A program made the position numbers and the translations under genes. Positions 1-35,676 of a stretch of 64,000 nt of DNA are shown piece after piece (positions within the stretch are counted from its first letter, which is position 1; each line of letters starts with the position of its first letter). The stretch comes from Lingula anatina (lineage: Eukaryota > Animalia > Brachiopoda): the NCBI GenBank assembly GCA_051362555.1, contig CM120640.1:59436788-59500787 (forward strand), given 5' to 3'. A model generated the notes under the pieces. That model did not search any database. It saw nothing but the letters and a program-made list of their open reading frames with translations, and was not told the origin of the DNA.

Positions 1-895
1 CACTTTTGCCGCTTCCACCTCGCCCACCCCCACCATTTGTGGAATCACCATTAAATTGATCGAATGTGGTTGTCCGTTTGATATTGGAAACATGATGGCG
101 TGCAAAGGTGTATAGTCGTAGGTAGATTGTCACCATGATGATGCATGGTAGGTAAAAACTCACGCAGGAGGAGATCACGGCGTAGACTGGACTAATCACA
201 AGCGCACAGAACGGCCTCTCAGTGGGCAACTCCTCCTCCGCCTCCTCAATTCCTATCAACCCAATCTGGTGCCAGCCAAGGTTGACAGGTAGGAAGGAGA
301 TGAGAGCAGAGAGAATCCATACAGCTACGATCATTGAGATTATCTTGTTCGCTGTCATTGTCCGAGCGTATTTAAGGGGGTCCCGTATATGTAAGTAACG
401 ATCAAAACTTATGGCACAAAGATTTAGAATAGACGCCGTGCAACACATCACATCCATTGACACCCAGATATTGCAGTAGTGAATGTCAAAAATCCAGTAT
501 CCCATGAGATCGTTTCCTACGGCACAAATCATAACAAAGACAGCTACAAAAAGGTCCGCCACGGCTAGCGATACTAAGAGCAAATTGCTCCGTTTCCTAA
601 GGTTTCTATCGGTATAAATAGCCACACACACCAGTACGTTTCCCGCTATAGACATGAAGATCAAAATACACAGAATAAACCCTATGAAAATACTCAACCC
701 AAGTCCATAAACTGTAGACGGTAAGTCTGCGATCTGTCCGGCGGATCCATTCTGTGTTATGTTTTCCGTGAAATTCCACGTTATTCCTTCGGAATAATTA
801 CCTAAATGAAGCAGCAAAGATTGTTGCGTGCAGTTCCCCCCGTCTGGTAGATACTTTGTGAGATTTACACGGCTGTTCGAACAGTTATATAGCAT
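1..895 (-). CDS. Dop1R1: Dopamine receptor 1, invertebrate Dop1/Dop1R1 type (class A GPCR); 3' part lies beyond the left window edge
   Basis: Translated by hand (absent from the ORF track because no stop lies in the window): ATG at 895 with in-frame TAA upstream at 908-910. MLYNCSNSRVNLT...IAGNVLVCVAIYTDRNLRKRSNLLLVSLAVADLF...AVGNDLMGYWIF...CNIWVSMDVMCCTASILNLCAISFDRYLHIRDPLKY...WILSALISFLPVNLGWH...YAVISSCVSFYLPC...LYTFARHHVSNIK. TM3 Asp and TM5 serines indicate a catecholamine receptor; NDLxGYW, DRYxHIxDPLxY and ARxHVxNIK match Dop1R1-type receptors. TM1-TM5 and the start of ICL3 are uninterrupted. Confidence 0.88.
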   Translation of the reverse strand, partial: MLYNCSNSRVNLTKYLPDGGNCTQQSLLLHLGNYSEGITWNFTENITQNGSAGQIADLPSTVYGLGLSIFIGFILCILIFMSIAGNVLVCVAIYTDRNLRKRSNLLLVSLAVADLFVAVFVMICAVGNDLMGYWIFDIHYCNIWVSMDVMCCTASILNLCAISFDRYLHIRDPLKYARTMTANKIISMIVAVWILSALISFLPVNLGWHQIGLIGIEEAEEELPTERPFCALVISPVYAVISSCVSFYLPCIIMVTIYLRLYTFARHHVSNIKRTTTFDQFNGDSTNGGGGRGGSGKS

Positions 896-3058
896 CTTAG
901 TTACATGTTAGCTGACGTATGCTGCCGCTGTTTGCAATTTATTCGATGCGCGGTCCTTCTTATTTCTTATATACTCCCAATAACAGAATCAGATTACTTT
1001 ACCATGCTTTACTTTCGCAAGTCACCATCGAGTGTGCTGAGTCCGTAGTGTCTGACAGCCTTCGCTCTTGACCTTGGTCAGAAGCGAATTCTACAACTGG
1101 AGAGTCACTTACCCAGTGCAATCGACAGTCACTGACCACGCTCGATGGGACCTCAGCATAGATCTGATTGCCGCGCGTACATACTTCATGATGTTGTCTA
1201 TGGCTAATAAATGCTATGCACAGTGCGGCTTCAAAGTTTGCTCAAGAGTTGAGAGATTAAATCCGGCCTACCTCCATACATTGCTAATTGCGACTCCGCT
1301 TTTGCCTTGCCGTCAACACTATATAGTTATTTTATATGAGTTACAAGTATGATACAAGTCCTTTCCATGAAGCATAACGCATGTTGCTGCAGAAGGATGA
1401 TTCGGGTATCTTTTAAATCCAACTCTTGTGATTATCTTGTACATAAAGCCTTGTGTATGTAACCTTTCAGACGTACGTCCCAATTTGACGGACAACGAGA
1501 TACCTGCTTGTCATTTACACCCCTTTAATGAGAGAATCTCATGAAAACATCCAAATACCTGCTATGCGGGCCCAACCACAGCTGAAATTACTACAGTGCA
1601 TTCTATTTCCCTTCACAGGTCGATATCTGTGTGGTTATAGAAGTAGTTAAAACACTTCTATTGACGGCTATTATCCGCCACCCATTGAAAACAGCAAGTC
1701 TGTTTACTTTCCCTCAGACGCCTAAGATCACGAATCCACTCTCCTCTCCACTCTCTCAATGCACAGGTGTTAACAGGCGTGTTTAAAACGTTGGCTGTTT
1801 AGTGATGTAAGGAGTCGATACCTCTGCTAATATTTTCATCCCATATGCCAGTTGGCTTGATGAGATCCACTGATCTGTAATTGATTGTAAGAAAGAAAAA
1901 TTGAGTTGCAGCAAATTACTTATGTACGCGGCAAGCCTACGGAATCGGGAGGTGGGGAACACTTTAGGGTGAACAATCACTCGCTCTTTGACCGATCTTG
2001 CGGTTCAGTACCAGTGGGTGGGACCCGGAGTAAATCACGGGGGATTAAATTTGTTCAAACAGTTTACGGAAGAAGAAGTAACAGCAAGCCGCACTATGAA
2101 AGCTTACCACACGTTGGTCAGGGGCGTGTGATTTTTAAATCTGAAAATCCTGGATGTCGTAATCTTAACCAGCACGCGACTTTGTAACTTTGAACTGCCT
2201 CATTAAATCGATTAAAACTATAAAGCGTTAGTATTGTTCAGCATGCCTGCTGTTCACACGGCTCTGTAGGTAATGAAAGTATAGACGTTAAATGATGCCA
2301 GTCGTTTTACCCTCCGTGCTAAATCGAACGAATAATTGTAGTACTTCAATGAACATTGGCGTATGTTAGATTTACAAAATATTGAATAAAACTGAGCACG
2401 ATAAACACAATACTAATAAGCACCGGTCTTGACTAACACTTTAGCCCTTGGCAGGGACTACCGAGCTTACCATGAGATTTGTTGGGGATACATACATACA
2501 TACATGTAGAAACCTTCACATGTATTTTTCACCCTGCCACCATTCTTCCACTAATATTCCCAGTCTGTAGTAATTCCATGTTCCAACAGAGCATAATGAA
2601 TTAATATACTTGTTAGATAATTTGTATGTGTTTATATATTTGTAATTGTCCCTTACTCACCTAAGGTTTTGAAAAAAAGTTAGATATTATCCACAATCAA
2701 GGATGGGCTAGTCAAATCATCTCAACTACCACAATGTAGTTATACGTGGATAAGCATCTCACAGAACATCTTTAAGCTAGGTTTATAACCGTGATATTTC
2801 AAATGCAATTAAATGACTTATCACAAGCAACAACAGTCATGACGGCAGATTTTTTCTCTGCCGGAAGAACGTGGGGCGGGGAGGTCTTTGTAAGGTCGGG
2901 TACACATCACCGAAAATTACTCTCTATCAGAGGTCTTTTAAAATTGTTATACATGAAAGCCGACCGCAACCCCCTCTCCTCAATAAGAAGGCACTTCCTT
3001 TCCTACAGGACCTATCTATAACGCCAAGATGAACACGAAGAATGCATTCGGATTCACA

Positions 3059-3201
3059 CTGGGTTGGTCCAACTCTGTGGGGGATTCTTGTTAAAGTGCA
3101 TTCAGTGGAATCAGCTTAATTGTCTGACACGCCTCCTCGACTATCTTGTGCTGATTATGCTGATTCCACTGATGATACTTTAGCGAGTTGGACCGACCCA
3201 G
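3059..3201. repeat. Foldback / imperfect inverted repeat (possible MITE remnant)
   Basis: CTGGGTTGGTCCAACTC (3059-3075) pairs with GAGTTGGACCGACCCAG (3185-3201); the inner arm AAAGTGCATTCAGTGGAATCAGC pairs with GCTGATTCCACTGATGATACTTT. Confidence 0.6.
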
Positions 3202-6200: not shown

Positions 6201-7074
6201 TATTGTCTTAAAGGATATCGCTGCCATTTCCGCTAGGTGTACATTGTAAGCTTTTGTTTAAGTGTACTGAATTCGTGCTTGTTGCATGCTTCAGTGTAAT
6301 ACTCCTGTACATGAAATATCAGTTCCGTTGCATACATCTATAGATTAACCCTGACACACAAATTACAAATTATGTGAAATACACACGTAATGTATCAGTA
6401 GGTATAATGACGCACTCATTATTAAAAAGAATAAATAGTAATAACTACTACAAAAATAAAATTAAGCATGTACATGCGACTATGTCATGCCAAAGACGTA
6501 AAAAGTGTTTTCACTTCAATCACTAGTTTTGTCAGGTCGGCGTATTCCTTGAGCTTTTTTCAATTAATTAAACATTCGTAAGGCCTTAACAACTAACGTT
6601 GACAGGCGAGAATGCAGAGGTTAAAGAGCGATGAGTCAAAACCTAGGCGCAGGTACGAATGCTGTTACATGCAAATGTACAGACCAAAATTTTCCTTTTC
6701 ACTCCCTATTTGTGCGTAGTGCATCACAAACAATCTAGTTTGGCTCAGGTTCACAAAAATCGTAAGACCGAAAGTTGACCGCAACTGCCAAACCGAAATT
6801 TACGTCAACATCAATTCGGGCTAAATCTACATGCAGAAGTACACTAAGAATAACCTAAGGTCGAAAAACACAACCATTTTTTGTAACTGTACAAGCGGTC
6901 TGCTCCCAATTTACCCTGGGTTATATTAGATTAAGGGTATTTTATCAGCTATCTGTGGAGAAATTGGCACAAAGAGCCATTATCTCCCAATTGCAGATAA
7001 GATTGGGGTTCTATATGCACTAAAATATAGGACATAACAAAAAAAAAAGAAAGACATAACACTTTTAGACTGAA

Positions 7075-7295
7075 ACCCTGAACCATCAACGCAGGCAGAT
7101 ACACCAGAAGCAACAGAAAATTAAAATTTACACTTAAACAGCCCTAAAAAGACTGAAATAATGGAGGCAATATTGTCAGTGAAGAACAGAAAGGCATCGG
7201 GCAGTGACAACTTGAATGCTGAGCTATACAAAGCATCACCACAGATAGCAACACCCTTTTTGGAACCCTGTACTCTGCAATATGGAAGGAAGATG
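7075..7295 (+). mobile_element. Decayed RTE-like LINE ORF2 fragment
   Basis: Plus-strand translation with frameshifts gives ...PKKTEIMEAILSVKNRKASGSDNLNAELYKASPQIATPFLEP..., matching the KxxKAxGxDxxxAE motif just upstream of non-LTR RT domains. Confidence 0.6.
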
Positions 7296-8118
7296 TATAT
7301 TTCTCTATTGTACTTGACAGTCACCTTGTATATGTAAAATATTTAATAGGCTGCTGCATTCAACTTCAGTATTGATATCTACACCAACTAAACATCTAAA
7401 ATTTGTTGTTTGCTTTAATTTTGATGTCTGAATAATGTGTGTGAAAGTTAATGGTGATCGGCGGCCATTTTAGATATATCAAATTGCAACGTAACAAAAT
7501 AACTCAATAAAGTAAAGGAATAAATATAAACAAGTTTCTGGTGCACATTTGGGCTAAAACCGTCATATGGACCAAAATAAACGACCTTTCATATGCGGAT
7601 GTACCGGGGTATACCCCGGTATATTTTTATGTGACACTGACGGCCATATTGGATGCAACAAGCTGCCAATGTAGCATTCAATATGTATTTGTTCTGAGAC
7701 CAGGTGGAAAAATGAACTAAATCACGATTTTACAAAAACATTTCCACCGCTGGAGACAATATCATATACACGCAGGAGCAGGATAATATGGAACTCGATG
7801 GTTGAAGCCTTCTATTTAAGATCTTGTAAAATATTCAAATATTTATAAATGTAAGTGCGTTTTTTCACCTTTTTGATGCGGGGCAATACAATTCAGTATC
7901 ATTAATAAAATAGATTTCGTTAAAATGTGATGTGTGTAGAAAATTCAATTTTAAAGTTAGGGGTGTTTGTTTACTCGCCTGTTGTGTATGTGTTCGTGTT
8001 TGTGTGTATTCCGATTTGATCAACAAAAATCACAAAACGTTTAAATTTAAAAGAATTAACTATGAGAATAAGCAATAAGCATTGTGAAATGAATCAGGTA
8101 CACATGAACGTAAGCTCC

Positions 8119-8120
<2 letters not shown>

Positions 8121-8202
<82 letters not shown>
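8121..8202. repeat. Compound microsatellite (GT)n(GA)n
   Basis: Directly visible; it produces the spurious SLSL/HTHT ORF at 8056-8253. Confidence 0.95.
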
Positions 8203-8204
<2 letters not shown>

Positions 8205-10761: not shown

Positions 10762-11000
10762 TATTTTACAATAGAATTTAAATTACTTGTCCAGTAAGTT
10801 TCCTACAATAAGCATTTGGCTACAGGCAATAAAATGCATGAACCTAGCACGTAACATGCTAGCTCATAGTGTCATTTTAAGCAGATTTCATTCAGATATT
10901 TTACAATAGACTTTACATTAATTACTTGTCCAGTTAGTTTTCTACAATAAGCATTTGGCTATAGGCAATAGAATTCTTGTTAGCTCATAGTGTCATTTTA
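10762..11000. repeat. Local tandem duplication, 2 copies of about 105-135 bp
   Basis: TATTTTACAATAGA...ATTACTTGTCCAGT.AGTTT.CTACAATAAGCATTTGGCTA.AGGCAATA...TAGCTCATAGTGTCATTTTA occurs at about 10762-10879 and 10897-11000. Confidence 0.8.
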
Positions 11001-15642: not shown

Positions 15643-16908
15643 CTTCCAACAAGATAAATAAATTAAAGCACTGAACGCGCTGAACACTCTGTCATAACTA
15701 TCACTGAGACTTTTTCAACGTGTTCAAGTGAATTTCCTGATTACAAAGTCTAGGTAGGCAAAGTGCAGAAAAAAACATTGGCATGGTATAATTGTCTTCT
15801 CCGGTCTTGGACAGGAATCATCCTCTCCATCAATCAACGCTCCCAAGAGGGAGAGTAGAACGCCATTTTAATTTGCTTTATTGTATGAAGCATAAAACGG
15901 CTTATTGAATAGAGGAAGATACTTGCATTGAGTTTTTTTTTCTAAAATGAGTTTGAGTTTTCGAGATCATATAAAGATGAAATATGTAGGGGGCAGTTAT
16001 TTTCCGACCGTATTTAATTCAATAAAATTGCTTCCTTGACAAATGATTGTAACTATTCCACATGCAACTATAAGGTATCTACTAGAACGATTACCCATGA
16101 CTTTCATTTGGAAACTGTTCAGGTTAGCCGAGATAATGAATAAATTCATTTTAGGAGCGCTTTTCTTCAAATCTCATCAGTAACACGGCCGCTGTAGTTT
16201 GGAATGCAATAACCAGTTACATTGATCCAGACATAGTATCGTCTTTATCTATCGAAGAACGGACTCTGATTTTTAACAACAAATTTCCCCAGTGTCCGTG
16301 TACCAGTCTTACGCCTTTATCTCTACTTTGCCAAGCCGTGTGCAGTATGTATAACGTTACACAATGTATTTACTCACAATTAACAGCAATATCAGTGAAT
16401 GAAGAGCATATCTATTAATTTGACTTTTCTGTCTAAAAAAATCAATGAACCTATTGTACCGGTAAGATGTACAAAGTTCCTGCACTTTCAATCAAACAAA
16501 TGAGACGGCAATAATGTAAACGTTTATGTCCATTTGCCTTTGATCTTTAGAAAATGATGGTGGAGGCAACAGTTCTCGAAAACTTTCATAAATGTTTTAA
16601 TGATTATCAATGACATGTGACGAAACTATATTTTAATACATCTCGGGTACACGTAAGGATGTATATGATAAGCGTTACATGTTGAAATGCCTAACTGGCC
16701 GGTTTCCCATGCTTCTGGTTGAAGGTTTAACTGACATAGCCCTTTGGTTTAGACTATACTTAACCCAATGCAGGGAAATTCAACCACGTAGAATATTCGC
16801 TTGTGATCTGCATATAGATTTTGCTAGTAAAGATTTAGTTTCGTCCTTTGGTTTTTGATGATATAGTAGAAATGGTGTGGAGGCCAGTGAAATATTTGCT
16901 ATGTTTAA

Positions 16909-17506
16909 GGCCCCTTATTTCACACAGACCACGAATCCCACGAATCGCCAGGAATTGAGAAATTTCAGGATTCGTGAGGATTCGTGAGATTTTGCCAATT
17001 TTCTGGTCTAATTCGACACGCTCTACGATTCAGTTACGATACAGGTGCGATAGTGTTACGAATATTCGTGGGATTCGGCTGGAATCGCACGAAATATATA
17101 TATATATTGTCCAGAAATTCACTACGATTTTTTGGAATCGGGAGTTCGTGGCCAAAACATTGAACAGCTTAAAATGTTTGCCACGAATTCCCGATTGATC
17201 AAGAATTGCAAAAACTAACTACGATTATATACGAATCTGTTAAGAACTTCACGAACTGATTACGATTCAACCACGAATCGTGAAATTTTCAATTCCTGGC
17301 GATTCGTGGGATTCGTGGTCTGTGTGAAATAGGGGCATCAAAGTTTTTGCCACCAATTCCTGTTGGTCACGAAGTGCAAGAACTTACTACGAGTATATAC
17401 GAATCTGTTAAGAACTTCACGATCTGATTACGATTCAACCACGAATCGTGAAATTTGTCAATTCCTGGCCATTCGTGGGATTCGTGGTCTGTGTGAAATA
17501 GGGGCA
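16909..17506. mobile_element. PIF/Harbinger-like MITE with duplicated right end
   Basis: Left TIR GGCCCCTTATTTCACACAGACCACGAATCCCACGAATCGCCAGGAATTGA. Its reverse complement occurs twice, ending at 17337 and 17506. The element is flanked by TAA on both outer sides (3-bp TSD) and has many internal ACGAAT/ACGATT motifs. Confidence 0.8.
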
Positions 17507-18293
17507 TAAGAAGTCTAGCCGGATAATTTCAATAATCGGGAACACCAAAAGCTGGCCATCTATACCCAAATTATCTGCTTCAATAATTCTCCAAAATTTT
17601 CCTAAAACATGTGGCAGATAAACATTATTTTACTTCATTGCTGTATAATCGCTTTACCTAGATCTTTTTTTCACATCACTGCAAGGATTTCCTATTGCTA
17701 AATGGGTGATATAGCAAATAATCAACTCCTATACATATCGCCTCTGCTGCCATGATGCATTTTAAGAAATGTTCCATATGTACATATACCGTATATATTT
17801 GAATTTTTATCCCCAGTTCATTTGAATATTGTTGCAGTGGGTGGATGCGCTTATGAAACGAGACAAAGCATTAGGAATTTATAGTGCATATTCATCAATA
17901 AAACCACAAAACGTCTACAGACATTAACTTTATAGTTGTGATGGTGTAGTCTATAGATCTAATACAGGGTGTACCTGTGAAAAAGTTGCCAATTTATCCA
18001 TTACCTACTCATCGCGGAATGCACCATTGCAAACAAAAAGGTTGGTAATAAATATAGCGCAACTGATGTGGAATCTCAATGCACAAAACTGAAAATTTCG
18101 ATCTGAGGAAGATTAATGACACTAATTGAATTGGGAAAAGAAGGCATGTCAGAAAACCCATCAGTCTTATGCAGGCCTTAAATAATCTAATTACAATGCT
18201 ACATAACCTTAATCTGTAAATTCAGTTTTATCGTTGAAATGTGTAAACATCCTGAAAATTAAACGGGTTTAAACATAGTTAATACAGGTGAGG

Positions 18294-18295
<2 letters not shown>

Positions 18296-18366
<71 letters not shown>
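18296..18366. repeat. Compound microsatellite (GT)n(GA)n at the start of the D1-type receptor intron
   Basis: Directly visible; it gives the SLSL-HTHT tail of the raw 414-aa ORF. Confidence 0.95.
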
Positions 18367-18375
<9 letters not shown>

Positions 18376-18404
18376 GAAGAAGAAGAAAAGGAGGTGATAC
18401 ATAC

Positions 18405-19503
18405 CGACAGTGCTGACTGTATAGTCTTCGTAGTAACCTCTGGCTCTCGATTGTCCCTTGCCACAGCAGCGACACAATATTTTCCTATATGCCGCTCGGA
18501 AACTTGGGTTCAGTGAATAAATAAACGGGTTGAACACCGAGTTTATCCAGCCCAGCCAGACGAAGAAAGAAAATATGTCCATAAAGTTGGGATTTAGTTT
18601 ACACAGTAGCATTTCAGGGTCCCAGCCTAATAGACAGTTCAAGATGAAGAACGGCAACCAGCACAAAATGAATACCCCCATGACAGTTGCCATGGTTTTG
18701 GTGGCTTTATTTTCTGAACGTTTAGTTCCCTTTCCATCTTTGCGGACATTAGCCATCGCTTTGTCCATGTCTGCAATTTGCTTGGCTTGTCTGCGAGCGA
18801 TGGCAAAGACTCTGCCGTACAGGAATGTCATCATTATAAGAGGGACGTAGAAACTGATACTCGACGAGATAATAGCATAATATGGGTTGAACGCCAATTT
18901 ACATAGAGGTCCAAGAGCTTGATCCGTGGCCCACTGGTGCCACCTGTAGTCCCCTTCGAAGTAAAACCATTCTAGTTGTAAAGGGATGAAGGAAACCATG
19001 CCAGAGGCAATCCAAGCAACACCCAGCATGATTCCGGCAGTCTTGTTGGTCACGATTTCGTGATAATGGAATGGGCGAGTCACAGCTATGTATCTTTCGA
19101 CGGCGATCATCAAAAGATTAAGAATGGATGCAGTTGACATCATGACATCAAAACTCACCCAAGTAAGGCAATAATGACCGAATGGCCAGTTGCCGAGCAA
19201 GTCCTGGATGGCAGCAAAAGGGAGAACAAATACCCCTACACACATATCTGATATAGCAAGAGAAACGATAAAATAGTTTGTGATCTTGCTTCTTAATTGT
19301 TCGAACTTCAAAATTGCGATAACGACCAGCAAGTTGCCCAATATTACAGCCAAGTCTATGATACTGAGTAAGACTCCCAGGAATATTCTCACTCCAGTAG
19401 GAATTGGAGAAGGAGCTGGATCATGCCCTGCCGCACATAACGCCTGGTAGGGGGCCTCTGTGGCATTTAATGTCGCATTAATAGCAGACATCGTCGTTGC
19501 CAT
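18405..19503 (-). CDS. DRD1: D1-like dopamine receptor of vertebrate D1/D5 type, main 7TM exon
   Basis: ORF 19503-18259 has all 7 TMs: LRSKITNYFIVSLAISD, WPFGHYCLTWVSFDVMMSTASILNL, ERY, VSFIPLQLEW, YAIISSSISFYVP, VMGVFILCWLPFFILNC, FVWLGWINSVFNPFIY, CRCC. These closely parallel vertebrate D1 motifs (LRSKVTNFF, ISFIPVQLSW, YAISSSxISFYIP, WLPFFILNC, FVWFGWANS). A donor G|GTATGT at 18404 precedes the microsatellite, so the real exon probably ends at 18405. Probable 5'UTR acceptor at 20075 (tcttatctcttctcag). Confidence 0.85.
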
Positions 19504-20110: not shown

Positions 20111-21180
20111 AAGATAAGATAAGATAAGATAAGAGTTTATTTAGCCAATTATAAAAATCGGAAATCATTTTCCATTGGAGCAATATACAGAGTAAAATAA
20201 TAAAATAATAAATAAATAAATTAATTAAGAATTTAGCTTTGAGATCAAATTAAAATGCGTCACTGCACTTGGATAAAAGCTGTTTAAAAAGCGTTTACTG
20301 CCTTTAAAAGTTAAAAGTCTACTGTTGCTTGGTAAAAAAGTAAAAAGAGAGGATGCAGGATGGAAAGCGTCTTTCATGGTGTTGACAATTCTTTTCTCCA
20401 TCCTGTCCTTAAAAATATCATCCAGCTTGGGGAGATCTTGTCCGATAATCCTGCTTGCAGTTTTTACAACGTTTGCTAATTTCTTCCTTTCCTCCCCAGC
20501 TGTTCCGCTATACCATATTATAATTCCGTACGCTAGAATGCTTTCAATTACACACCTATAAAAATTGACTAAAATAGGCACACTATCAGTAAAAGTTCTC
20601 AATGATCTTAAAAAATACAGTCTTTGTCGTGCCTTCTTTACACTCTTTACGGTGTTATCTTTCCAATTCAATTTACTGTTAAGGTGTATACCAAGTAGTT
20701 TAAATTCCTCTACCCTACTAACTTCATCATTACCAATGGTGAGTGGTACCTTTACATTCTGATTCCTTCTAAAATCCACTATCATTTCTTTGGTTTTAGC
20801 TACGTTCAAGATAAGATCATTACTCTCGCACCAGCTTAACAACGACTCAACAGATTCTCTATATGTACTCTCGTCATTATCAGTGACTAGCCCCACCAGC
20901 GTAGTATCGTCCGCAAATTTCATGAGAAAAGTCCCATCGCTTACACTAGTGCAATCGTAAGTAAAAAGGGAGTAAAGACAAGGTGAAAGGACGCATCCCT
21001 GTGGTGCACCGGTATTTAAGACTGTTATTTTTGAGCTAAATGAGCCGACTTTAACAGATTGTCTTCTATCTAAAAGAAAGTCTAAAATCCAGTCACAAAT
21101 AAAAACAGGTAGCTTAAGATGGTTTAAAAGTTTCAAATATAGTTTTTTTGGCACAATTGTGTTAAAAGCTGAACTGAAGA
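20111..21180 (-). mobile_element. 5'-truncated Rex1/Babar-like non-LTR retrotransposon (RT plus C-terminal domain)
   Basis: ORF 20225-21223: FSSAFNTI, GAPQGCVLSPCLYSLFT, KFADDTTLVG, LNVAKTKEMIVDFRR, KKARQRLYFLRSLR, FYRCVIESIL. A 3' (TCTTA)n tail lies at 20111-20133. RT similarity begins abruptly at about 21180. Confidence 0.88.
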
Positions 21181-23192
21181 CTCGGATTAAATTTGCTTTA
21201 CATTTTAAGTATATTAAAAGCACTTACTTGCACAAAAATCCGTTTTGTTCCTACCGCTCAACGTAAGATTTGTAAACCCGTTTGAGCAAGGGGAAACCTA
21301 GTACTGCTAAACCCGAATGGTATCAACAAACACTGAACTATCGATTTCACACACATATAAAGGCAAAATTATTTGATGAAAACGAGCCCATCGGTATTAA
21401 ACAGAGTATATATAACTTGATTTTGGACATTGTTTACAGTGCCCACACTTAGAGACCATTCACTGACCACTCTTCCTCGCTTACTCCATGCTAGATAAAC
21501 AGGCCATCGTATCATTACGGGTACCTGCCTTAGTCCGTCACCCGGGTTACGAGAGCGCCATGACACAAACAGTCTTTACATTACCCCAAACCCCGTCATT
21601 GAGCGGACAGAATTATTTCACCCTATACAAACCTTAAGAAAACATTAAGATCGATGATGACTGGTCTATTGTTCGATATCAAGAAACCGCGGCATTGTTT
21701 CGCTGATTTAGTTGATTCAACATCAGGAAAACGCGGTACATGTGCATGAACTGCAGCAATAGGAATTATCAATCACCTTATTTATGATTTGAGGATGAAG
21801 TATACAGCCCATCTAATTGATCAATTTCACTAGTTTTCCCATGCTAAATTTAAAAATGCACTATTTCAGTAACCGCGCTCAATTTTGGACGGTATCAATT
21901 TATAATTATAAAAGGTGGTGGACAAATAAACAGAAAGCGCAACAAAATTGATTTCCTATCACTGATGCCAACGATGCTGAAGGGGCTTAATGTTTATAAG
22001 AATGAGATAATGACGCTTTTGACCCTTTACGAAGCACGTCCGGCTGTTTAGCGTTGACCCGTTCTCATTCAATTATTAATTGCAAATTACTATTTCTGCG
22101 CAAGATGGTTAGAGCACGCTTAATTGGTGATTTTCATGGTTTTCTACAGTTAGTGAAAGACATGGGCCTAGTGGAGCATAAAATAACGGTAATGTAAAGG
22201 GACGTGTCCAGGTTCTAGTGATCAGATTTACACCTGGTCCATACAGTGATCATTCGACAAACAAGAGGTCAGATTAGTACCACCTTTGCACTAGACGTCG
22301 GCCAGCCTGCGGATATAAGGGAGCAGACGGTGACAAATGTAACACCCTTTTTACCTCTCGGTGTTAAATGAAAAGTTTAACGATTTTCAGTAATGCACCG
22401 ATCAAACCGCAGAGGGGAATCAAAAATCATTTCGCATATCATTAAATTTTTATCAAATCTGTAAGCACTTTTTGAACAGTTGGATGGATTATTGTATTAT
22501 CATTTTTGGCATGTTTAGTTGTTTTTCTGGACAGTACTACATACTCTTTAAGTATATATCAAAGCCCTCACTAAGGTAAAAAAAAAATCATCGCATGTTG
22601 AAAATAACACTCGATTACGGTTGTTCTTTTGAAAAAAAAAATGTCAAAAATCGAAAGACGGTGTTCTTGTTTTTTCGAACAAGCATCATATCCACAGCTT
22701 GATTACCATTAGTTAAATAAAATTTCATAATTTTTCAATGAAGGAAGCTATCCTTGTTTTACTGTGAGTTGTTATAGGTCGGGAATTGTTAGGTTTTACT
22801 GGTATATCCCAGTCGTACTTTCTAGTATTAAACACAAGATATGATATGTAAATAAATGCAATGAAGAACATTTTCTGAATATTCATTTCTACAATACAAA
22901 ATTATTTCCAAAGGAAAAAAAATAATAATTCTGATATTTATCTTGTTAAAGTCAGCCTTTGGACAGCATTATTGTGCGAGTTTATCTTTCATGGATGAAA
23001 CACGACTTACTAATGAAATAAGTGTTCTGGCAAATTACAACACATTTTGATTTTACGTTTATCGAGTTCCAACCTCGGATTTAATCACATTTGAATTTCC
23101 CCTGATGTGGACGACTGTTAACCCGCACTCACCCCGCATGAAACAATTTAACAATCAAACACCTGCTGTCAACAGAATGAATGGATCATTAA

Positions 23193-23230: not shown

Positions 23231-23233
<3 letters not shown>

Positions 23234-25439: not shown

Positions 25440-26775
25440 AAAATTCACATCAAACCGTGGTTCAATGATAGCTATAAAGGATTGTTCGGAAATTATAAAA
25501 AAAGGCACTTTATAGGTTTAATGTGTGCAAAACGCCTGACAATCACCCAGTTTACATCCTCGCAAATGATAGTCTCCTTTCACAAGTTGAGAATCTTGAA
25601 TATACATGTTGAGGAAATATAATCCTAGTGGATTTTATAAGCGTTTTTCAAATTAGAAAATATGTTCATCACGTTTAATTTGCCGACCATTTCTTCAAAA
25701 AGATGCCCAGTAATGACCACGAGGGAGTGGAGATCTCAGCGCCCCTTCAGAAAATGAACGTTGGTCAATTTTTGAAGCATTAAACAGAGAATATAAATAA
25801 GTTGAAATAAAAGAATCCATTAAATCTCCCAAGCGTAATAAAAATCAATAGATATGATGGCATTTTAAATGAGTAATTTATAGAATTTTCAGAAATAGTA
25901 CTGTCATATCTTTATGTCATACCGGTGTTTAATGCAATGATTGATAAAGGATACTTCCCTACTATTCTCTGCAACCCATTGATTGTTCCAGGGTGAATAT
26001 TCTGATCCTAGTAATTATAGGGGAATACGTTTATTAATCTGTATATTTCAAGTTATTCATGTATACTGTAAACACAAGGCTACTCGCATTGTAAGGTAGT
26101 GCTTGTACACACACTGGACAGTAGAAGTGCCACCCCCCTGACTCAGAGAAATCAAAGTTATAATGCCTGGTCTACTTATAATGAGACTAATGAGTATAAA
26201 ACCGTTGTACCATGGAATTGTATTGTTGGTCTTTTTGTGAAATTTGATGTTAATAAAATGATACCAGGAGCATATCATTCCACAGCCATTTATCTCCCCC
26301 AAAGTATTGGTTCAGTAGGGGTCACACTTCTATTGTCCAGTGTGTGTATTATGCATTATTATGCGTCCTAAATTCATACATGTAGTACCACTGAAGCAAT
26401 GTTTGTGTTGTACGCTATAACCAGTAAATTTCTGTGTGAAAAGAAGAAACTCCATTACTGTTTAATGGACTACAAACAGTGCTTGGATATTATAGATAGA
26501 GCCTAATATTGTATAAGTTATCTATTTGAGGAATCGGCGGCAAATCTCTCTCTGTTATTACTGTACGATAATGTGAAAACTGGTATTTTGTTAAATAGAA
26601 AAACATCAGACTTTTTTTGAAAACAATAGAGGAGCCCTTCAGAGAGAGGTCCTATCCCCTATCCTATTTTTCACTACATGATTATGAATGTGAAGAAAAA
26701 ATAAATAAATATGGCATGCAACCAGTTAAGATGAAAGACTTGGCACTTTTCTAGTCATGTTTGCAGATGACAAAT
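25440..26775 (+). mobile_element. Heavily decayed LINE RT remnant (RTE-X/CR1-like), interrupted by a MITE
   Basis: Ordered motif remnants across frameshifts and stops: KPWF (~25452), EIKESIKS..DGILNE (~25804-25873), FN...GYFP (~25928-25960), DPSNYRGI (~26003), MDYKQCLD.IDR (~26465), GALQREVLSPILF (~26630), FADD (~26760). Confidence 0.7.
26108..26346 (+). mobile_element. Tc1/mariner-like MITE, copy 1 (TA TSD)
   Basis: TA|CACACACTGGACAGTAGAAGTGCCACCCC ... GGGGTCACACTTCTATTGTCCAGTGTGTG|TA; highly similar to the inverted copy at 28598-28837. Confidence 0.85.
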
Positions 26776-27810
26776 TTTTTATTTATTTTTTTATTTTATT
26801 TTTTTGCTGATTCTGTTGAACTCTTTATCGATGTATACTCATATAAATGGGGGTTAATGTAAAAAATATATAAATATATATATATACTGGTATTTGTCTA
26901 TCTTCACACAACCTCGCAACTGAAACTGATACACTTAGATAAATTTCGACTGAACAAAGGTGTTTGCACTGTAACGATGTGAAGGAGAATCCACACTTTG
27001 TATTGGGGTGCCTTACCAGTAGGTATACCGCTCTCAGGAGAAAGTTCATTAAGCCATTTTTTATATTAGACCTTCTGTTTTCAAATAAGTTCTCCTGCTG
27101 AATTCTTCCATGCAGTATGAAACTATTATATAATCTGGTGGAAGGATTCAGCATGAGATCTGATCTGATATGATCTACTACATATATGACCTATGTACTG
27201 TAGTCTCCTGTCTCTTTGATTTACATGTAAATGTCCTGTATAAGACTGATGGACCTTAAAAGGTCCAAAGTAATAAACTATTGTTATAATCTTAACCTCT
27301 GAGAAAGAATGTGAGGCTTTCACGATTGAAAGATCTGTTTTCCTCTTTGGCAAAAAAGGTTGTCTTATGTAAAAATTCTTGCCACGGTACATTTACTTCT
27401 GTACATAATGTAATTTCAGATGATATACTAATAACATAGAAGATAAGATTATGAGTTATACGAAAATTAAAATCTTTTCTACTTATTGTACTGAAAAACC
27501 ATTTATAATTAAAAAAAGTAGACTTTAATTGAATTTACCCATGGGATTATAAAGACATTTTATTTGAAATGTGTTATTACTTAAATTCTAGCGTTAACAA
27601 TGTTGAATGCGGCAATCTGAGCAGTGAACTCTCGTAACCTACGACACAGAGTAGGAGCACTACAATGGCCCATAGGAGCCTACGCGTGCGTCTCTCAGAC
27701 GTTCCTTAACATTCGAAAACGACATGCAACCCGTCTATTTCATATGTTATTAAGCCCTGTAGCAGCAGAATTGACAAGGCCCATGCCGCATACGCCTTTT
27801 ACTACAGAGC

Positions 27811-28288
27811 TTTGAGCTCCGAAAATGACATGGCTGTGTCTGTTTCGCCACTTACTGATCTCCATAGATGCGAGATCGACACGACTGCGAAAATCACACG
27901 AGCCATGTCTATTTCGTGTTTTATAACATTGTCATTTAAAAGCAAAAATTTCACAGTTAAAGACAAATGCGACTTGGCACAAGGTAATTTTGCATTTATG
28001 GGAGCCAGCAAGTTACGAAATAAGCATGGCTATGTCAATTTCGTGTTTTATAAAATGCCCATTAATATTATATATTAGTATAAGACAAATGCAGCGCGGC
28101 CTGGTCAATTCCGCATCTATGGGTTTCAGTGAATGACGAACAAGACCATGTGAATTTCGAGTTTTATAACATAGCCATTTGGAGCTAAAAAATCCATAGT
28201 AAGAGACGAACGCGACATGGGTCGTGTCAATCTATGGGGTTCAGTAAGTGGCGAAACAGACACAGCCCTGTCGTTTTCGAGGCCCATA
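27811..28288. mobile_element. MITE-like element with ~58-bp TIRs and internal ~120-bp tandem repeats
   Basis: Left arm CGAAAATGACATGGCTGTGTCTGTTTCGCCACTTACTGA pairs with right arm TCAGTAAGTGGCGAAACAGACACAGCCCTGTCGTTTTCG. The unit ATGT...TTTCG.GTTTTATAA...AGACAAATGC recurs at about 27903, 28030 and 28148. Confidence 0.7.
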
Positions 28289-28597
28289 CAGTCACATAAA
28301 CTATTTTGCGCAAATTATGACATTTGTCGATAATTGAATTTACGGTTCTGTATAAACTCATCATTCATGCACTTAGGCCTACAGCATTGTCATCTAGACT
28401 CTCGGCATTACATGTTTATCATCAATCATAATGTAAATATATTGGAGAAAGGTACCCTTTTGCCATCCTAAACGCGATATTCTTCATAAGTTGTCATATA
28501 TATAATCAGCATATCATATCATATCATATCATCCCCACCTACATTGTTTTCAGCGATTGCCTTTGATTGTTAAAAAAAACATTGACGCGTTCCTATA

Positions 28598-28837
28598 CCA
28601 CACTGGACATAGAAGTGTCACCCCTACTGAACCAATACTTTGGGGAGATAAATGACTGTGGAATGATATGCTCCTGGTATCATTTTATTAACATCAAATT
28701 TCACAAAACGACCAACAATACAATTCCATGGTACTCATAAGTCACATTATAAGTAGACCAGGCATTATAACTACTCAAGATCTACCTACTTTGATTACTC
28801 TGATTCAGGGGGTAACACTTCTATTGTCCATTGTGTG
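28598..28837 (-). mobile_element. Tc1/mariner-like MITE, copy 2 (inverted relative to 26108-26346)
   Basis: Reverse complement of copy 1 with small indels; flanked by TA on both sides. Confidence 0.85.
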
Positions 28838-30182
28838 TACAAGAGACGGTAAACAGACACCAACATGATCGACTTAGATCAGCTCATGTATAAAAAGCAA
28901 GCCCTCAAATGTATTGTTTTCAATTAGGACAGAGGACATTTCCCTATTTATCGTCTCTTGGATACAAACTTTTTTTAATGAGAAAAGGAAATCGCTGAAA
29001 AGGTGGGAATCAATATTAGACTTAGTGGCGTGTTATTTTTATCCCTGTCTTATTGTGGAGTAAAATGAAAAACCGACAAAATGTACCTGGATAACCCTAA
29101 GGTATTCGCATAATTAGTAGGACAAGGTACCGGTGCACATTCGATGTTTACAGTGGTTTTATATCGATTATTGCGAAATGGGGACTCACATTTACACATG
29201 AACTGATCTACGTCGATCATGTTAGTGTCATGAAAACATAATAGTATTGGATGCACCCAAGAAGGACAAAAATATAAGCACCAAGTAAAATACAAACAAC
29301 TAGTTATAATCCAGCTGGTCTGTTGTATTCAACGTCATTATGTTTAAAAAACGCCTTAAGTTTAATATTTCAGTGTAGATTGTCCTTGACTCACTGAGCC
29401 TTCACAAATGCTAATGAAATCCTTGGTAAAATTTCAGTTCAGGTTGGAAGGTGTTTGGTCTTTCCGCTTATTTTTCATTCTTCAATTTTATCGTATCAAT
29501 GGATGTGGTTGTCAGATTGCGTATTCTCATAAAAGAATACAAGGCACTGCTCACCTCATGTTCGGCCTTTATTGTAATCTCACAGTGTGTTCTGTCTACT
29601 GTAACAAGTTTTTTGTCACTATTTGCTAGTCCATTGTAGTAACGCCTTTGAATCAACGAATTCCACATAAAATATAAACAAACTTAACATACAAAGCACA
29701 ATGTTAAAAAAAGTCTGAAATGAAGACAATTATACGAGAAGCGGCGCTAGACAAATGAACCCTGCTGGTAAGTTATTTTTTTAGATGGAGTGTAGGTATC
29801 TCTTACCGAAGCAGAAGCATTTAACGTATGTAAATGCGTTAGAGGTGCGAATGTCCACATCAAAGCCTCTTCGTACCCTACACTCAACAGGTGCAATCTA
29901 CTTCACTGTTAGAAATGCGTACACTTTCATTTGCATACATTGGTCGTTAAATAAAAACGAAATATGCTGTTACTTACAACGTATTTATTAACCTTTTTTG
30001 ACATTAGATGATTTAATTAATCCCTTTGAAGACATTATGAACTGTTGAAGCAGCAGCTGGTTTAACATTCAAATTAAACGTCGAGCAATGGTTTCCAGAA
30101 GAGAGTGCATCAACGCGGTTGAACTCTCAAAACGTAAGTACGTTGAGTTAACTGATAACCCTGACATTTTGCCTTTCTCACA

Positions 30183-30358
30183 CAGGGGCGGATTGAGGCC
30201 GTCTTCTGGGTCTTCTAAAAGACGGTCAGATTATCAAGTTAAAATTGACAGGTATCTAATTATCTTATTATTACTGTCGGAAGACGACCAAAAATAGAGG
30301 ATGGATCCACAAGGATAGTTTGGAAGACTGTCAGAAAATACCTCTGGATCCGCCCATG
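30183..30358 (+). mobile_element. hAT-like MITE with 5-bp TSD (TCACA)
   Basis: TCACA|CAGGGGCGGATTGAGGCCGTCTTCTGGG...CTCTGGATCCGCCCATG|TCACA; same family as 57021-57188. Confidence 0.8.
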
Positions 30359-30381
30359 TCACACGCACTGCATTTGAAATG

Positions 30382-30441
30382 TAAACTTGAAAATCTGACC
30401 GTCTTCCGGAAGACCCAGAAGATGGCCTCAATCCGCCCCTG
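30382..30441 (-). mobile_element. Inverted 5' fragment of the same hAT-like MITE
   Basis: AAACTTGAAAATCTGACCGTCTTCCGGAAGACCCAGAAGATGGCCTCAATCCGCCCCTG closely matches the reverse complement of the first ~60 bp of 30183-30358. Confidence 0.8.
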
Positions 30442-33400
30442 TAGTTAACCTACACACCTTAACTTTCTTCGTCCCGAATGTGTCCATGAAATATATACAC
30501 ACTCAAATCATAATAAAAAACATAGAAAAACAGGTATATGTACGCCCAAGTAGTTATACTACGATGTCTGAGGTCCGAAAATAGGTTTAACTTACCCGTC
30601 TCAAAAATTCAATTTCCCAGTGTAATATCCTCAATTTAGTTGTCCCAAATCGGATGTCAAAATAATACCTTTTTACGTGTTATTGCAGTTATTTTGACAG
30701 AGCCAATTAACCTCAAATACCGCTTAAAGATAGGTCTTCTTTCCTGAGAGACCACAAACTGTGATAGCCGGAGTCTTTGGTAAATCTTCAGGAGACCTGG
30801 ATCCTTGATTTCACTCACTTAGGTCAGGCAAAACTGATAACTTGGTTAGTGTATTAAATTTTAAAGCAGAAAAACAACAGCATTGAGATTTTCCTGGGGT
30901 CAATTGTAAGTTTTTCCGACTTACCAAAACAATACCCAAATTATCTTTTTTCATTTAACAAAATAGATGTGATGAAGAATCCGATTTTCTCAAAATAAGG
31001 ATTTGTTGCCTACATTAACTAACTTATCAGATTTGTCTGGCCTTACTTTGAATTTACCAAAAACGATTAACTGTGATTGCACTGGGGGTCTTTATTGCTT
31101 TTACCGGCTATGTATCATCCATTATTTTTATAGGGGGTGGATAATTTCAAGAGTAGGGCTAGAGAAGTGCTTGTAAGATTGGTACTGATGCGCTTATGCG
31201 TTTAAACATGCAGTCATTTGTAAACAGCGTCGTCGCGTGTTCTCATGCATCCCTAAGCCATTACTGTCCTTAGTTTTCAAAACAGTTGAGAAAAAGCAGA
31301 AACGAATACAAAATAAACATTCTAATACAAAACTCTATGTTCAGAAATCTTCAGGGCCGCCTGTCCATGACCTTCGACACGCGATGCTTTGAGTGCAAAA
31401 GTTAAAAGCATATAGGTATCTGCATCCTGGAGAGAGACAGCCCATTCTGGGAGTTAAACAAAGATTTTAATGAATGGGTAAGGCCGCGTTGCACGAACAT
31501 CATAATCTCATTTACTTAATTTACGGTAGCGATAAGGGAAAGCTGGCGTCCGATAAATAGTGTTTCTAATAATCGAATTAAATGTTTACATGCATGGCAA
31601 GTGTCTCTGCGTCTGTAGTCTCTTGGTCTGACTGAAGCGGTCCTTTTTATCGCTACCGTGCGTTCAGCACCGTACTAACTTTAACTGAAAATAAAATAAA
31701 ATGACGGCACTGGAAGACCAGGTTCTTTGATTTTGGATTTAGTTTCCATGGTGCGAATAGGGTCTCCGAGGGGTTCTTATGTGTAATCTGCTCATCTGGA
31801 CGAAAGCTAGACTATTGACAATTCAACTAGCACGGTTTTGAACGCGTTTTTATTCGACATATACACAACTAGGGAATGTATAAATTTATGCATCTGTATA
31901 TCTGCAAGGGGCAGTCAATAACCAATGTTGACAGGAACCGGTTGATTCAGTAACTCTTCAAGTAATATACGTGTATCTGTAATAACTGACTTATGTTTAT
32001 CTCCTTATTAAACAAATTACTCTAAATGCAGTGATTCTGTGTTATCTGTGGCAAGCCCGTGTATTCAACTCACACCGTATAAAATAACTTCAAGCTCATT
32101 CTACGCCACTTTTAATTACTGTTAATATATTTCTACATTGGAAGGGGGGTTGAGGGAAATTATAATTGTGGAAATATTATACGCAATGTGAGCGTCATTG
32201 GCGTTAACTAAGAAAGTCACTTGTTTGTGGAATGACCGTCATCACTAAGTAGTGGGAGGGAAGAGGCACAATCGACGCAAAATATCCCGGTAGTGCAGTA
32301 TGATTGTATGAGTTTAACCGTTCATCTGGTAAAACTGCTACAGTGTAGTTTTAAGTTGGGGAATTTACTCTTGTTGGAATAACACCGATCAACTTAACTA
32401 ACTTATTTGGAACGCACACACCTACCGGTGTAAGGACGCATAGAAGATATCAGGGCCTTAGGATGGGCGAAAATGATCCGCGGCAGCGGTTAAAGGTATA
32501 TACAGCACATACAGGTTGGTTATTTATACTGCCTGTGGTACTCATCTATACGCTGACTGAAAGAAAAGAAAGAGACTTCTAATGAACTGGGATAACGGAA
32601 GGATCCCATATCTTTTTTTTTTCACTCCCCAAACCAACGACCTGAAAGCCTGAGAACGAAAACTACGAACTGATATGTCTTAAAAGCTCTTTGAATCTCG
32701 TTTAAAATAATGCCTTTATTGTACCAAAGGAACATATACCTTCAACATTTATATTTCCAGTGTTAAACACAATTTACAAATGATAATGATAATATAACGA
32801 AATAATAATAAATAAAATAACAGATAAATAAAAGTGAATAAAATTATTTTCAAATTTTAAAAAATTTCTTCGATTTTTAATCGTGATCAGTTACTAAGTA
32901 TCCCCATTTGAAGCACTAGGAACTTTATTTTAAAAAACAATACCTTACTGCAAGACGTCTATTACACAATTAAAACCAAAAGTTAATTTATAGAAAGGTC
33001 GATGTTTCCGTTGACCAGAGACAGGAATCGTTGAACCCAACTTCCCCAAGAAAAGAAACCTCTCTTGATTCTATAAAACCGTTAGACGATAGGCAGCTTC
33101 CCTGTCAATTGAAAAAAATTAAATGTCCCTCATCTATAATACTGCTGATATCGGCAAGATCCGATGACATTTGAAGAGATATGCGCAGCCATCCACATCC
33201 GCCCTCCAGCGAAATCTTGAAAAATGATAGTTTCTTTTAAATGTTATTAAACCCTTCTATTGGATCCTTCTGCTTTGAGGTATTTATTTCTCAAAATCTA
33301 TGTCACTTAGAAGAGGTGGACCCAAGAAATAAAATAGGTTATTTTTATTAGATATATGAAAAAAATTAAACTCTCCTTGTCTATGCAGGTAATATCTTTA

Positions 33401-33918
33401 AATTATTGGAAGCATGCGACGTTTCTCCCGTGACGGTACATGTAACTAGGGTATACCGCTGTCTTTTTGGTGGTCATAACCACGGTAACGAGACTATTCT
33501 TTGCTACAAGAGCAAATCAGATGCTACATTTCATTGAAAATTACCCCTCCCAGACCGTAAACGACATTGACAAAAGTGGACGTTTTGTACTCAGACGTGA
33601 CGGGCGTGTAAAAAAATACGTTTGACACTCGGATAAAAAATCCACTATTAGATCTAAAGAAAAAAGCATCTATCTTGCCCAAGTAAACGTGCACTGTGCA
33701 TCTTCAAAGTAACAACATGCATGGGGCAAAACAAGCTTTTGCGTTCGTCTAGTACAGGAAACCAAAGACACCCTCAAAGATACTGCAGACAAAAAAAAAA
33801 TTAAAATTAAACACTTGGCCGTGTCTGACCAATCAACTGTAAAGAAACCATAATAAATTACATCGACCGGTGCTGTTTTTAAACACGTTAGTAATTTGTT
33901 TGGATCAGTTGAACAGCC

Positions 33919-35676
33919 TCAGTCTAGCGGTATTGCCTGAATGTTTGCGACAGTCGAACTAGTCTCGTCTGATGGTGGCCGGTCGCCAGCGTGCAAATTA
34001 AAAGTAGACATACTAAACGTCTTGTTCGGTATTTTATACTGATGTTTTGGACAGCACACACATAAAATCCGTGAAAACGCCCGACGGAAGTCTTTCAAAG
34101 ATAGAGCGTAAATGATGGGATTCATTCCCGAATTGATATATCCCAGCCACGTGAAAACGGGGAATATGATATCTGGGTGAAGCACACAAGTTCCACATAT
34201 GCCATATAACAGGTTGGCCGCGAAGAACGGCAACCAACATATGATAAAAACCCCTATGACTATTCCTAGGGTCTTCGCCGCCTTTCGTTCTCTGGCAACT
34301 TTACTGAGTTTTGTTTTAATGACAAATTGTTTCAGTCTTTTCCGTATGAATTTTGCAGGACTGTGTATGTCTGAAACCGGTGCGTTGTCGTCTTCATTTT
34401 CGTTCTGATTTTCAATAAACGCAGAATTCACACTAGCCGTATCATCTTCGATACTCAAGTTGTTATTTGTGGTATTTCTTTTATTACTTTGATTGTGGCA
34501 CCCGTTCCTTAGGTAGCGAGGTTTGATAGGTGAAAAATCGTTTGTCTCCGCTATGGCAGGTGTGTAAATTGATAAATTTTTCCTAACATTCATCATAAGT
34601 AAACTAGTGGCCCCCGGCCTAGCACCTCCCCGGTGTATCCGCAGCGTTAATTTCTGTCCATTCATTCCACTTACTACAGACTTGGACCCGTGTCTTAGAC
34701 TCCTCAGTTGCTCTGCTGCAGCTCTGTATATTTTCCAGTAAACGTATAACATTATAACAAGAGGAGTGTAAAAAGATATGGCTGAGCTTATCAAGAGGTA
34801 AGCGGTATCCTCTGTGAAAAGACAGACCGTGTCTGGTAGTACTGGATCCACCGCTCGCCACCACATTATGGCGGGGAATGATATAGAGCCAGAACATATC
34901 CAAACTAATGCAATAAGAATGCACACTCTTCGCGACGACATCCGGTGTGGATATTTTATAGGATCCGTTATGGCCCAGTATCTATCCATGGATATCACGC
35001 ATAAATTAAGTATGGACGCAGTGCTTCCAAGAACGTCAAAGGAATGCCAAAGATCGCACCACAGTTTTCCATAGACCCACCGACCTGAACGTATCTCCAG
35101 CGCAATGCTGAAAGGCATTACTATACTGCCCACGACAAGATCGGCGACAGCCAAGGACACCAAGAAGAAATTTGTATTGGCCCGTAGATATCTTTCCTTC
35201 ACTATCGCAGTAATTACAAGTAAATTTCCAACCACTGTTAAAAGAGCAAAAAATGCCAGTACAAATCCTAGTGCTGGGTGTTTATGGTGGTAGGCCGCGT
35301 GCTCAAAAGCCGTCTCTTCTTCACCGTGGTAAAGATCACTAGGCGTAGTTCCTGGCAACGACGAATTTCTAACGTAGGTATCGTTTTTGATATTACCAGT
35401 ATAATAGAATATCGTTGAATTTAATGATGAAACCCCCATGACATCAATGATATATTGTTTGACTGACGTCGTTAGTTGTTTCTTATTATTAAGAAAAGTT
35501 GTTAACTCGACTTGGAGCGACTTTGTAGGCCTACAGGCACACTCACCCTTTACACTCTGAGCCGATGATTTCAGATCGAGAAAAGATGCCCTAGTATTTT
35601 GAGAGACATATCCGGCAAGTTGCTTTGCTATTAAAGGAGTAATGCCGATGGTCATGTGTTCCAAAAAATAGTTCAT
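33919..35676 (-). CDS. Dop1R2: Invertebrate-type dopamine receptor (INDR / Dop1R2 / DAMB-like), single coding exon
   Basis: 585-aa ORF with 7 TMs: CDLWHSFDVLGSTASILNLCVISMDRYWAITDP, ISFPAIMWWRA, YLLISSAISFYTP, ICL3 LTLRIHRG, ERKAAKTLGIVIGVFIICWLPFF, FTWLGYINSGMNPIIY. WHSxDV, DRYWAITDP, FPAIxWWRA and LTLRIHRG are characteristic of Dop1R2/INDR. Probable 5'UTR acceptor at 35869. The true start may be Met80 (35439). Confidence 0.92.
   Translation of the reverse strand: MNYFLEHMTIGITPLIAKQLAGYVSQNTRASFLDLKSSAQSVKGECACRPTKSLQVELTTFLNNKKQLTTSVKQYIIDVMGVSSLNSTIFYYTGNIKNDTYVRNSSLPGTTPSDLYHGEEETAFEHAAYHHKHPALGFVLAFFALLTVVGNLLVITAIVKERYLRANTNFFLVSLAVADLVVGSIVMPFSIALEIRSGRWVYGKLWCDLWHSFDVLGSTASILNLCVISMDRYWAITDPIKYPHRMSSRRVCILIALVWICSGSISFPAIMWWRAVDPVLPDTVCLFTEDTAYLLISSAISFYTPLVIMLYVYWKIYRAAAEQLRSLRHGSKSVVSGMNGQKLTLRIHRGGARPGATSLLMMNVRKNLSIYTPAIAETNDFSPIKPRYLRNGCHNQSNKRNTTNNNLSIEDDTASVNSAFIENQNENEDDNAPVSDIHSPAKFIRKRLKQFVIKTKLSKVARERKAAKTLGIVIGVFIICWLPFFAANLLYGICGTCVLHPDIIFPVFTWLGYINSGMNPIIYALSLKDFRRAFSRILCVCCPKHQYKIPNKTFSMSTFNLHAGDRPPSDETSSTVANIQAIPLD

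Follow-up and report, generated by a model that had tools for sequence, protein, structure and literature searches.

Three ancient dopamine receptor lineages lie head-to-tail in the brachiopod Lingula anatina, with a likely D1 orthologue among them

Introduction

Can receptor genes that parted before protostomes and deuterostomes did still stand side by side in a living genome, and which dopamine receptors of different animals would then be true counterparts? The question is raised by a 64,000-nucleotide stretch of the brachiopod Lingula anatina (assembly GCA_051362555.1, contig CM120640.1, positions 59,436,788 to 59,500,787; hereafter the window), in which three catecholamine-type G protein-coupled receptor (GPCR) genes follow one another on one strand. 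A sequence-only reading of the window had assigned them to three families of excitatory dopamine receptor, namely Dop1R1, the vertebrate-type D1 (DRD1/DRD5) and the invertebrate-type dopamine receptor INDR (Dop1R2). We show that this arrangement is real, that genes 1 and 3 are members of Dop1R1 and INDR, and that all three lineages are of great age. The best explanation, to which we give a probability of roughly two in three, is that the trio is a surviving piece of tandem duplications that predate the protostome-deuterostome split. The sharper point, missed by the earlier reading, is that gene 2 is itself surprising because its host is a protostome.

Results

A six-frame scan places the start codons of the three genes at 895, 19503 and 35676, head-to-tail and all on the minus strand. 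Each frame matches the Pfam family 7tm_1, which bears out the three same-orientation GPCR genes described previously:

Gene 1: positions 1..895, minus strand; Dop1R1-type receptor (invertebrate D1/DOP1), first 298 of 462 codons; corresponds to XP_013419281, clade support 100/100.
Gene 2: positions 18259..19503, minus strand; likely vertebrate-type D1 receptor (DRD1/DRD5 lineage), from an indel triple, trees and RNA reads.
Gene 3: positions 33919..35676, minus strand; INDR/Dop1R2 invertebrate-type dopamine receptor, a single 585-amino-acid open frame; corresponds to XP_013419306, clade support 100/100.

The intergenic spacing within the trio is 14-18 kb, and only repeats and one reverse-transcriptase fragment were found there. 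None of the 53 other intergenic frames of at least 68 amino acids that were scanned, out of 105 frames of at least 60 amino acids, passes the Pfam cut-off, a scan that genes built of short exons could escape; this is in line with the claim that no recognisable host gene intervenes. RNA reads over the intergenic parts are mostly partial, repeat-like matches. The public proteins of genes 1, 2 and 3 are each listed on a contig of 1,890,239 bp, and pairwise identity among the three proteins is 38-42%.

Genes 1 and 3 can be assigned firmly from sequence to Dop1R1 and INDR/Dop1R2, respectively. Gene 1 leaves the window inside intracellular loop 3 (ICL3), with 298 of the 462 amino acids of the full protein (analysis label P0241) present. 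Its named matches are mostly 'dopamine receptor 1-like' proteins of arthropods, spiralians, hemichordates and one echinoderm; those of gene 3 are mostly named 'dopamine receptor 2-like'. In a 54-row LG+F+G4 tree gene 1 falls in a clade with arthropod, spiralian and ambulacrarian Dop1R1 (100/100), recovered in two further trees, and it carries the DHKAA motif, resembling Drosophila Dop1R1 and Sepia Sof_D1. Gene 3 groups with protostome and echinoderm INDR in the same tree (100/100; 100/99-100 over three trees). Both proteins are 53-63% identical to family members of other phyla. They match supplement rows XP_013419281 and XP_013419306 of PMC13661766, and were hence already known: the alignment there includes gene 1 as Lingula_D1, and gene 3 is a known Lingula member of the family of DOP2, AmphiAmR2 and Sof_D3 (also PMC5282848, supplement). 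Gene 3 is identical at 582 of 585 positions to 'dopamine receptor 2 isoform X1 [Lingula anatina]'; because 3 of 585 residues differ from the RefSeq protein, the window holds a different allele.

The family of gene 2 required more evidence. It matches 'D1' proteins of amphioxus, vertebrates, echinoderms and hemichordates best, at 38-45% identity. Among the 119 matches listed, none is a named protostome protein, and the leading matches from a search of 1.84 billion representatives reached no more than 46% identity. Trees were built with arthropod, lamprey, coelacanth, turtle and amphioxus proteins as named references, standing in for human and fly. Gene 2 joined chordate and ambulacrarian D1 with support 93 in a FastTree of 173 rows, and joined D1 with 91 in the Shimodaira-Hasegawa-like approximate likelihood-ratio test (SH-aLRT) and 92 in ultrafast bootstrap (UFB) in the 54-row LG+F+G4 tree. 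The corresponding values were UFB 96 and SH-aLRT 90 under LG+C20 with posterior mean site frequencies (PMSF; 39 of 54 rows, three H2-like rows kept).

Independent of substitutions is a triple of one-residue indels, a diagnostic derived from this alignment and not from print: an insertion in ICL1, a deletion in extracellular loop 1 (ECL1) and a deletion between transmembrane helix 7 (TM7) and helix 8. Gene 2 shares the triple with all ten D1 rows. The full triple occurs in 0 of 41 non-D1 rows, that is beta-like 0/10, Dop1R1 0/8, INDR 0/6 and other 0/17 (one only partly measurable), where the 'other' and vertebrate beta labels are motif readings and tree support for calling the ambulacrarian rows 'beta-like' is weak. 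Two of these indels, plus W7.43, are present in amphioxus D1/beta. Among search matches, the triple is present in 109 of 119 for gene 2 and in 0 of 119 each for genes 1 and 3. Of 136 representatives nine carry it, all inside the D1 clade of the 173-row FastTree. A scan of metagenomes with the D1 alignment kept 80 loci, four of which have the triple, all vertebrate-like at 63-83% identity; none of the 80 holds two different aminergic receptors. In the ESM Atlas, features gave generic GPCR clusters and structure placed D1A/D1B first, a lead only.

Gene 2 also resembles the vertebrate D1A/D1B/D1C/D1E receptors and amphioxus AmphiAmR1, as described in the accessible part of PMC3603308, in its pocket residues, short ICL3 and intron-free seven-transmembrane (7TM) region. 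It differs from them in its protostome host, fast evolution and short C-terminal tail. The tip list of a supplementary tree in PMC10244343 gives a Lingula 'DRD1', the only protostome there, immediately following the D1 of vertebrates, amphioxus and echinoderms, and places a second Lingula protein among Dop1R1 tips; with tip order alone visible, identity of this 'DRD1' with gene 2 is not provable, and no comment on it was found in the accessible part of that paper. A further Lingula protein in the same list, labelled ADRB2, adjoins the H2-like tips.

Several results weigh against a D1 assignment. Gene 2 sits on a long branch, no protein exceeding 46% identity to it, and three other trees left its placement undecided. 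One of these, a mixture tree of 40 of the 54 rows with one H2-like row, split its bootstraps 478 for that lone row against 473 for D1. Profile scores barely part D1 (369 bits) from beta (361), and PDB scores tie for D1 and beta2 at ~250 bits. The approximately unbiased (AU) test leaves gene 2 free to join the beta group (p=0.15) or to be sister to Dop1R1 (0.22), INDR (0.14) or octopamine-beta-like rows (0.32), and no second protostome D1 was found to back it among the matches listed and the metagenome loci kept. The pull of the H2-like row looks like long-branch attraction, since it was gone after the H2 branch was broken. Taken with the indel triple and the trees, gene 2 is likely a vertebrate-type D1, orthologous to the DRD1/DRD5 lineage. 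Of the three earlier family assignments, two are therefore firm and that of gene 2 is likely.

The seven helices and helix 8 of gene 2 lie in one exon, within 18403-19503. Its C-terminus is ambiguous: the public model (analysis label P0001) ends at residue 367, where a splice donor is likely (near 18404), whereas without splicing the frame continues through a CT/CA microsatellite to 18259. No splice joint at this 3' end was found in RNA reads, the adjoining repeat having been skipped. Gene 2 is transcribed: one study gave reads in each of its three runs, at summed depths of 1.3-7.3, and the four runs of two other studies gave none (4 of 7 runs overall). In the former study the depth of gene 3 is below 1 and that of gene 1 at most 0.22. 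Among the best 40 of 96 read rows, 12 coding differences are listed, 7 non-synonymous and 5 synonymous with no stops, too few for a reading of selection. The GC content of gene 2 equals that of gene 1 (0.45).

The AU test rejects the trio as one clade (p=4e-4). It equally rejects gene 2 with gene 1, with gene 3, and in every tested position next to or within protostome Dop1R1 or INDR, which agrees with the earlier view that no recent tandem expansion is involved; the p values for the trio clade and for gene 2 within either protostome family span 4e-4 to 1e-58. Under every surviving placement beside a cross-phylum family, the lineage of gene 2 is ancient, as judged from sequence. The shared name 'D1-class' fared less well: it is a signalling label and not a shown clade. 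The 40-row mixture tree separates INDR from a D1/beta/Dop1R1 group (95/89), yet monophyly of the three families is not rejected (AU p=0.23). Hemichordates and echinoderms have both D1 and Dop1R1, and because they do, Dop1R1 and D1 are likely paralogues, so that fly Dop1R1 would not be the orthologue of human D1.

Hemichordate and echinoderm 'D(1)-like' proteins (labels P0033, P0007 and P0038) form a second clade, which tends toward amphioxus D1/beta with weak support. This sequence pattern suggests that ambulacrarian beta-type receptors exist; the accessible part of PMC5282848 reports beta receptors solely in chordates and Meara.

Linkage in other animals was scored by two proxies, the size of the contig listed for each protein and the distance between accessions or locus tags. 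Accession numbers are taken here to follow chromosomal position. Nine species are named in the match lists of both gene 1 and gene 3, six with chromosome-scale assemblies and three with smaller scaffolds. Dop1R1 and INDR share a contig in four of the six chromosome-scale protostomes (Owenia, Mactra, Sinanodonta and Mya). By the same proxies, Glandiceps has Dop1R1, D1 and a beta-like gene on one chromosome, Amphiura Dop1R1 and a beta-like gene, and Asterias amurensis INDR and a beta-like gene; in Branchiostoma lanceolatum D1 and D1/beta share a chromosome, 176 accessions apart. The D1, INDR, alpha1, alpha2 and D2 accessions of Asterias rubens fall in one block of ~1,100 numbers. Because of these shared chromosomes, which are in line with the vertebrate paralogon described in the accessible part of PMC3603308, the receptor families belong to a common ancient linkage group.

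Other observations count against an inherited tight array. Dop1R1 and INDR lie on different contigs in the chromosome-scale assemblies of Dreissena and Tachypleus, and share one in none of the three smaller-scaffold assemblies (Capitella, Limulus and Tetranychus). Anneissia Dop1R1 and D1 occupy different scaffolds, as do Patiria INDR and the beta-like gene. Where the pair does share a chromosome, the gap is 1371 accessions in the annelid Owenia, and 742 and 826 in the bivalves Mactra and Sinanodonta. Adjacency is thus seen in none of these three genomes with ordered accessions, and no second genome with a tight trio or tight pair was found among those checked by proxy. The gene-to-gene adjacency of the trio is so far confined to Lingula.

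All three proteins bear the hallmarks of class A aminergic receptors: 7tm_1, DRY, CWxP, NPxxY, D3.32, S5.42/5.43/5.46 and N6.55, with the TM6-7 residues of gene 1 read from the full-length protein beyond the window. Gene 2 carries S3.36, V7.39 and W7.43, as does vertebrate D1, and has none of the vertebrate beta-adrenergic states V3.36, N7.39 and Y7.43. Positions 3x36 and 7x38 are given as the main tested switches of dopamine versus adrenaline selectivity in the accessible part of PMC13150006; S3.36 and V7.39 (7x38) are the D1 states at both, though they occur in some non-D1 rows too. From these residues, all three receptors would be expected to bind dopamine through D3.32, S5.42/5.43/5.46 and N6.55, and genes 1 and 2 are predicted to raise cyclic AMP (cAMP) through Gs. 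The cuttlefish Sepia offers a functional comparison, its gene 1 orthologue giving a dopamine-selective cAMP rise and its gene 3 orthologue a rise of both cAMP and inositol monophosphate (IP1) with dopamine (PMC13661766, accessible part). By analogy with that orthologue, gene 3 would signal via Gq/calcium and perhaps cAMP.

Three other features lie in the window:

Long interspersed nuclear element (LINE)-type reverse transcriptase fragment (RVT_1 and ALKBH8_N), upstream of gene 2: positions 20225..21223, minus strand.
Glycine-receptor-like Cys-loop channel gene A, with multiple exons and approximate ends: positions 50615..55041, minus strand.
Cys-loop channel gene B, a paralogue of A with multiple exons and approximate ends: positions 57698..63086, minus strand.

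The LINE fragment lies ~0.7 kb upstream of the gene 2 start and is open for 332 codons. Transposon-like dispersed repeats with inverted ends occupy 16904-17507, 26102-28843 and 30182-30442, and are heavily represented by RNA reads from elsewhere in the genome. Channel genes A and B form a tandem pair directly upstream of the trio on the same strand. Human GLRA1 and the GABA-A cluster lie on 5q near DRD1, ADRA1B and ADRB2, and because of this proximity the neighbourhood of trio and Cys-loop channels may also be ancient. The Lingula alpha1-adrenergic receptor XP_013419311 has an accession 5 numbers from that of gene 3 and may be a further member of the array on this scaffold. Genes 1 and 3 are themselves 25 RefSeq XP numbers apart, and for this reason such distances were not used to judge adjacency; the running ids in the supplement of PMC10244343 were likewise uninformative.

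Discussion

Two kinds of history could bring three old paralogues together. Retention of an ancestral tandem array is favoured because chance reassembly is so improbable: assuming 1,500-3,500 genes per chromosome, shuffling would make the three named genes consecutive with a chance of ~1e-6, and any 3 of 10 receptors with ~1e-4. The competing history has ancient paralogues on one ancestral chromosome that were rejoined in the Lingula lineage by inversions, so that their present order would say nothing about the ancestor. It accommodates the distant positions of Dop1R1 and INDR on one chromosome in Owenia, Mactra and Sinanodonta, and the absence of the tight pair from every other genome checked by proxy. 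However, a random same-orientation adjacency of three family members is expected at only ~1e-4 to 1e-6 per genome, and tandem duplication is the usual, established origin of such paralogues; we regard rejoining as improbable. The earlier proposal of a relic of ancestral duplications is thus upheld by the chance arithmetic and by the shared chromosomes elsewhere, but so far not by conservation of the tight cluster, Dop1R1 and INDR being ~740-1370 accessions apart in an annelid and two bivalves. Even further from the evidence is a recent Lingula expansion, or a deuterostome gene acquired by transfer or contamination. That all named top matches of gene 2 are deuterostome would fit the latter, but gene 2 shares only 41-46% of residues with any deuterostome protein, matches gene 1 in GC content and yields reads in RNA runs labelled with the same species. 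With the AU rejections in addition, this origin is largely refuted and we consider it very improbable.

The identity of gene 2 bears on what the array is called. It might represent another old lineage, either one of beta-adrenergic/amphioxus D1-beta type or an orphan lineage sister to Dop1R1, making the array aminergic and not one of 'three dopamine receptors'. Both placements survive the AU test, the PDB scores tie, amphioxus D1/beta shares two indels and W7.43, and the placement is unstable across trees; yet the complete indel triple is confined to D1 among reference rows, the vertebrate beta residues V3.36 and N7.39 are absent, and breaking the H2 branch yields strong support for placing it with D1. 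We therefore hold such a reassignment to be rather unlikely. A further proposal, an addition to the relic reading and not an alternative to it, is that the trio is maintained as a co-regulated module with shared enhancers. The single orientation, the intervals of 14-18 kb and the lack of a detected host gene between the genes are consistent with this. Dispersal in other animals argues that linkage is not generally required, and read depth in one study is unequal (1.3-7.3 for gene 2, below 1 for gene 3, 0.22 for gene 1), although bulk data cannot settle the matter; we hold co-regulation to be rather unlikely.

Under the tandem-duplication reading, duplications before the protostome-deuterostome split would have given rise to the Dop1R1, D1 and INDR families. 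The D1 orthologue would have been kept in Lingula and lost from most protostomes, and vertebrates would have kept D1 and lost Dop1R1 and INDR. Outside Lingula, inversions would have spread the array along the same ancestral chromosome, and persistence of the cluster would need no shared regulation. In its fullest form, which we favour slightly, Lingula keeps the excitatory dopamine receptor array of the urbilaterian in its original order, including the sole known protostome D1 and maybe alpha1, with Dop1R1 and D1/D5 as reciprocally lost paralogues.

The families themselves are known; the physical trio appears to be new, as does the likely protostome D1 orthologue beside Dop1R1. The accessible part of PMC13661766 merges Dop1R1 and vertebrate D1 as one D1 family, whereas Lingula has both, adjoining. 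INDR had already been dated to the bilaterian ancestor in the accessible parts of PMC13661766 and PMC5282848, which say nothing of linkage with Dop1R1 and D1. Amphioxus was already known to possess D1 together with INDR; protein searches found no Dop1R1 there, and the accessible literature reports no clustering. Adrenergic and glycine/GABA-A receptor genes lie in the same human paralogon regions as D1. The vertebrate paralogon (5q35/4p16/10q23/8p21; PMC3603308, accessible part) is similar in that one ancestral chromosome region held D1, but it concerns chromosome-scale linkage of copies from two rounds of genome duplication (2R), in contrast to the gene-to-gene adjacency of older families in Lingula. 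No description of the trio cluster or of a protostome vertebrate-type D1 was found in the literature covered, most subscription papers lying outside the search.

Drosophila Dop1R1 is routinely treated as the equivalent of mammalian D1 in studies of learning and reward. If the reading given here is true, the D1 lineage predates the protostome-deuterostome split, and no fewer than three excitatory dopamine receptors were present in the ancestral bilaterian, from which flies and vertebrates retained different members; what is called the 'D1 receptor' in fly, worm or mollusc would then not be the orthologue of the human one. The trio would be a physical trace of the expansion of the monoamine receptor family, and ligand, G protein and cell type could be compared across all three receptors within one animal.

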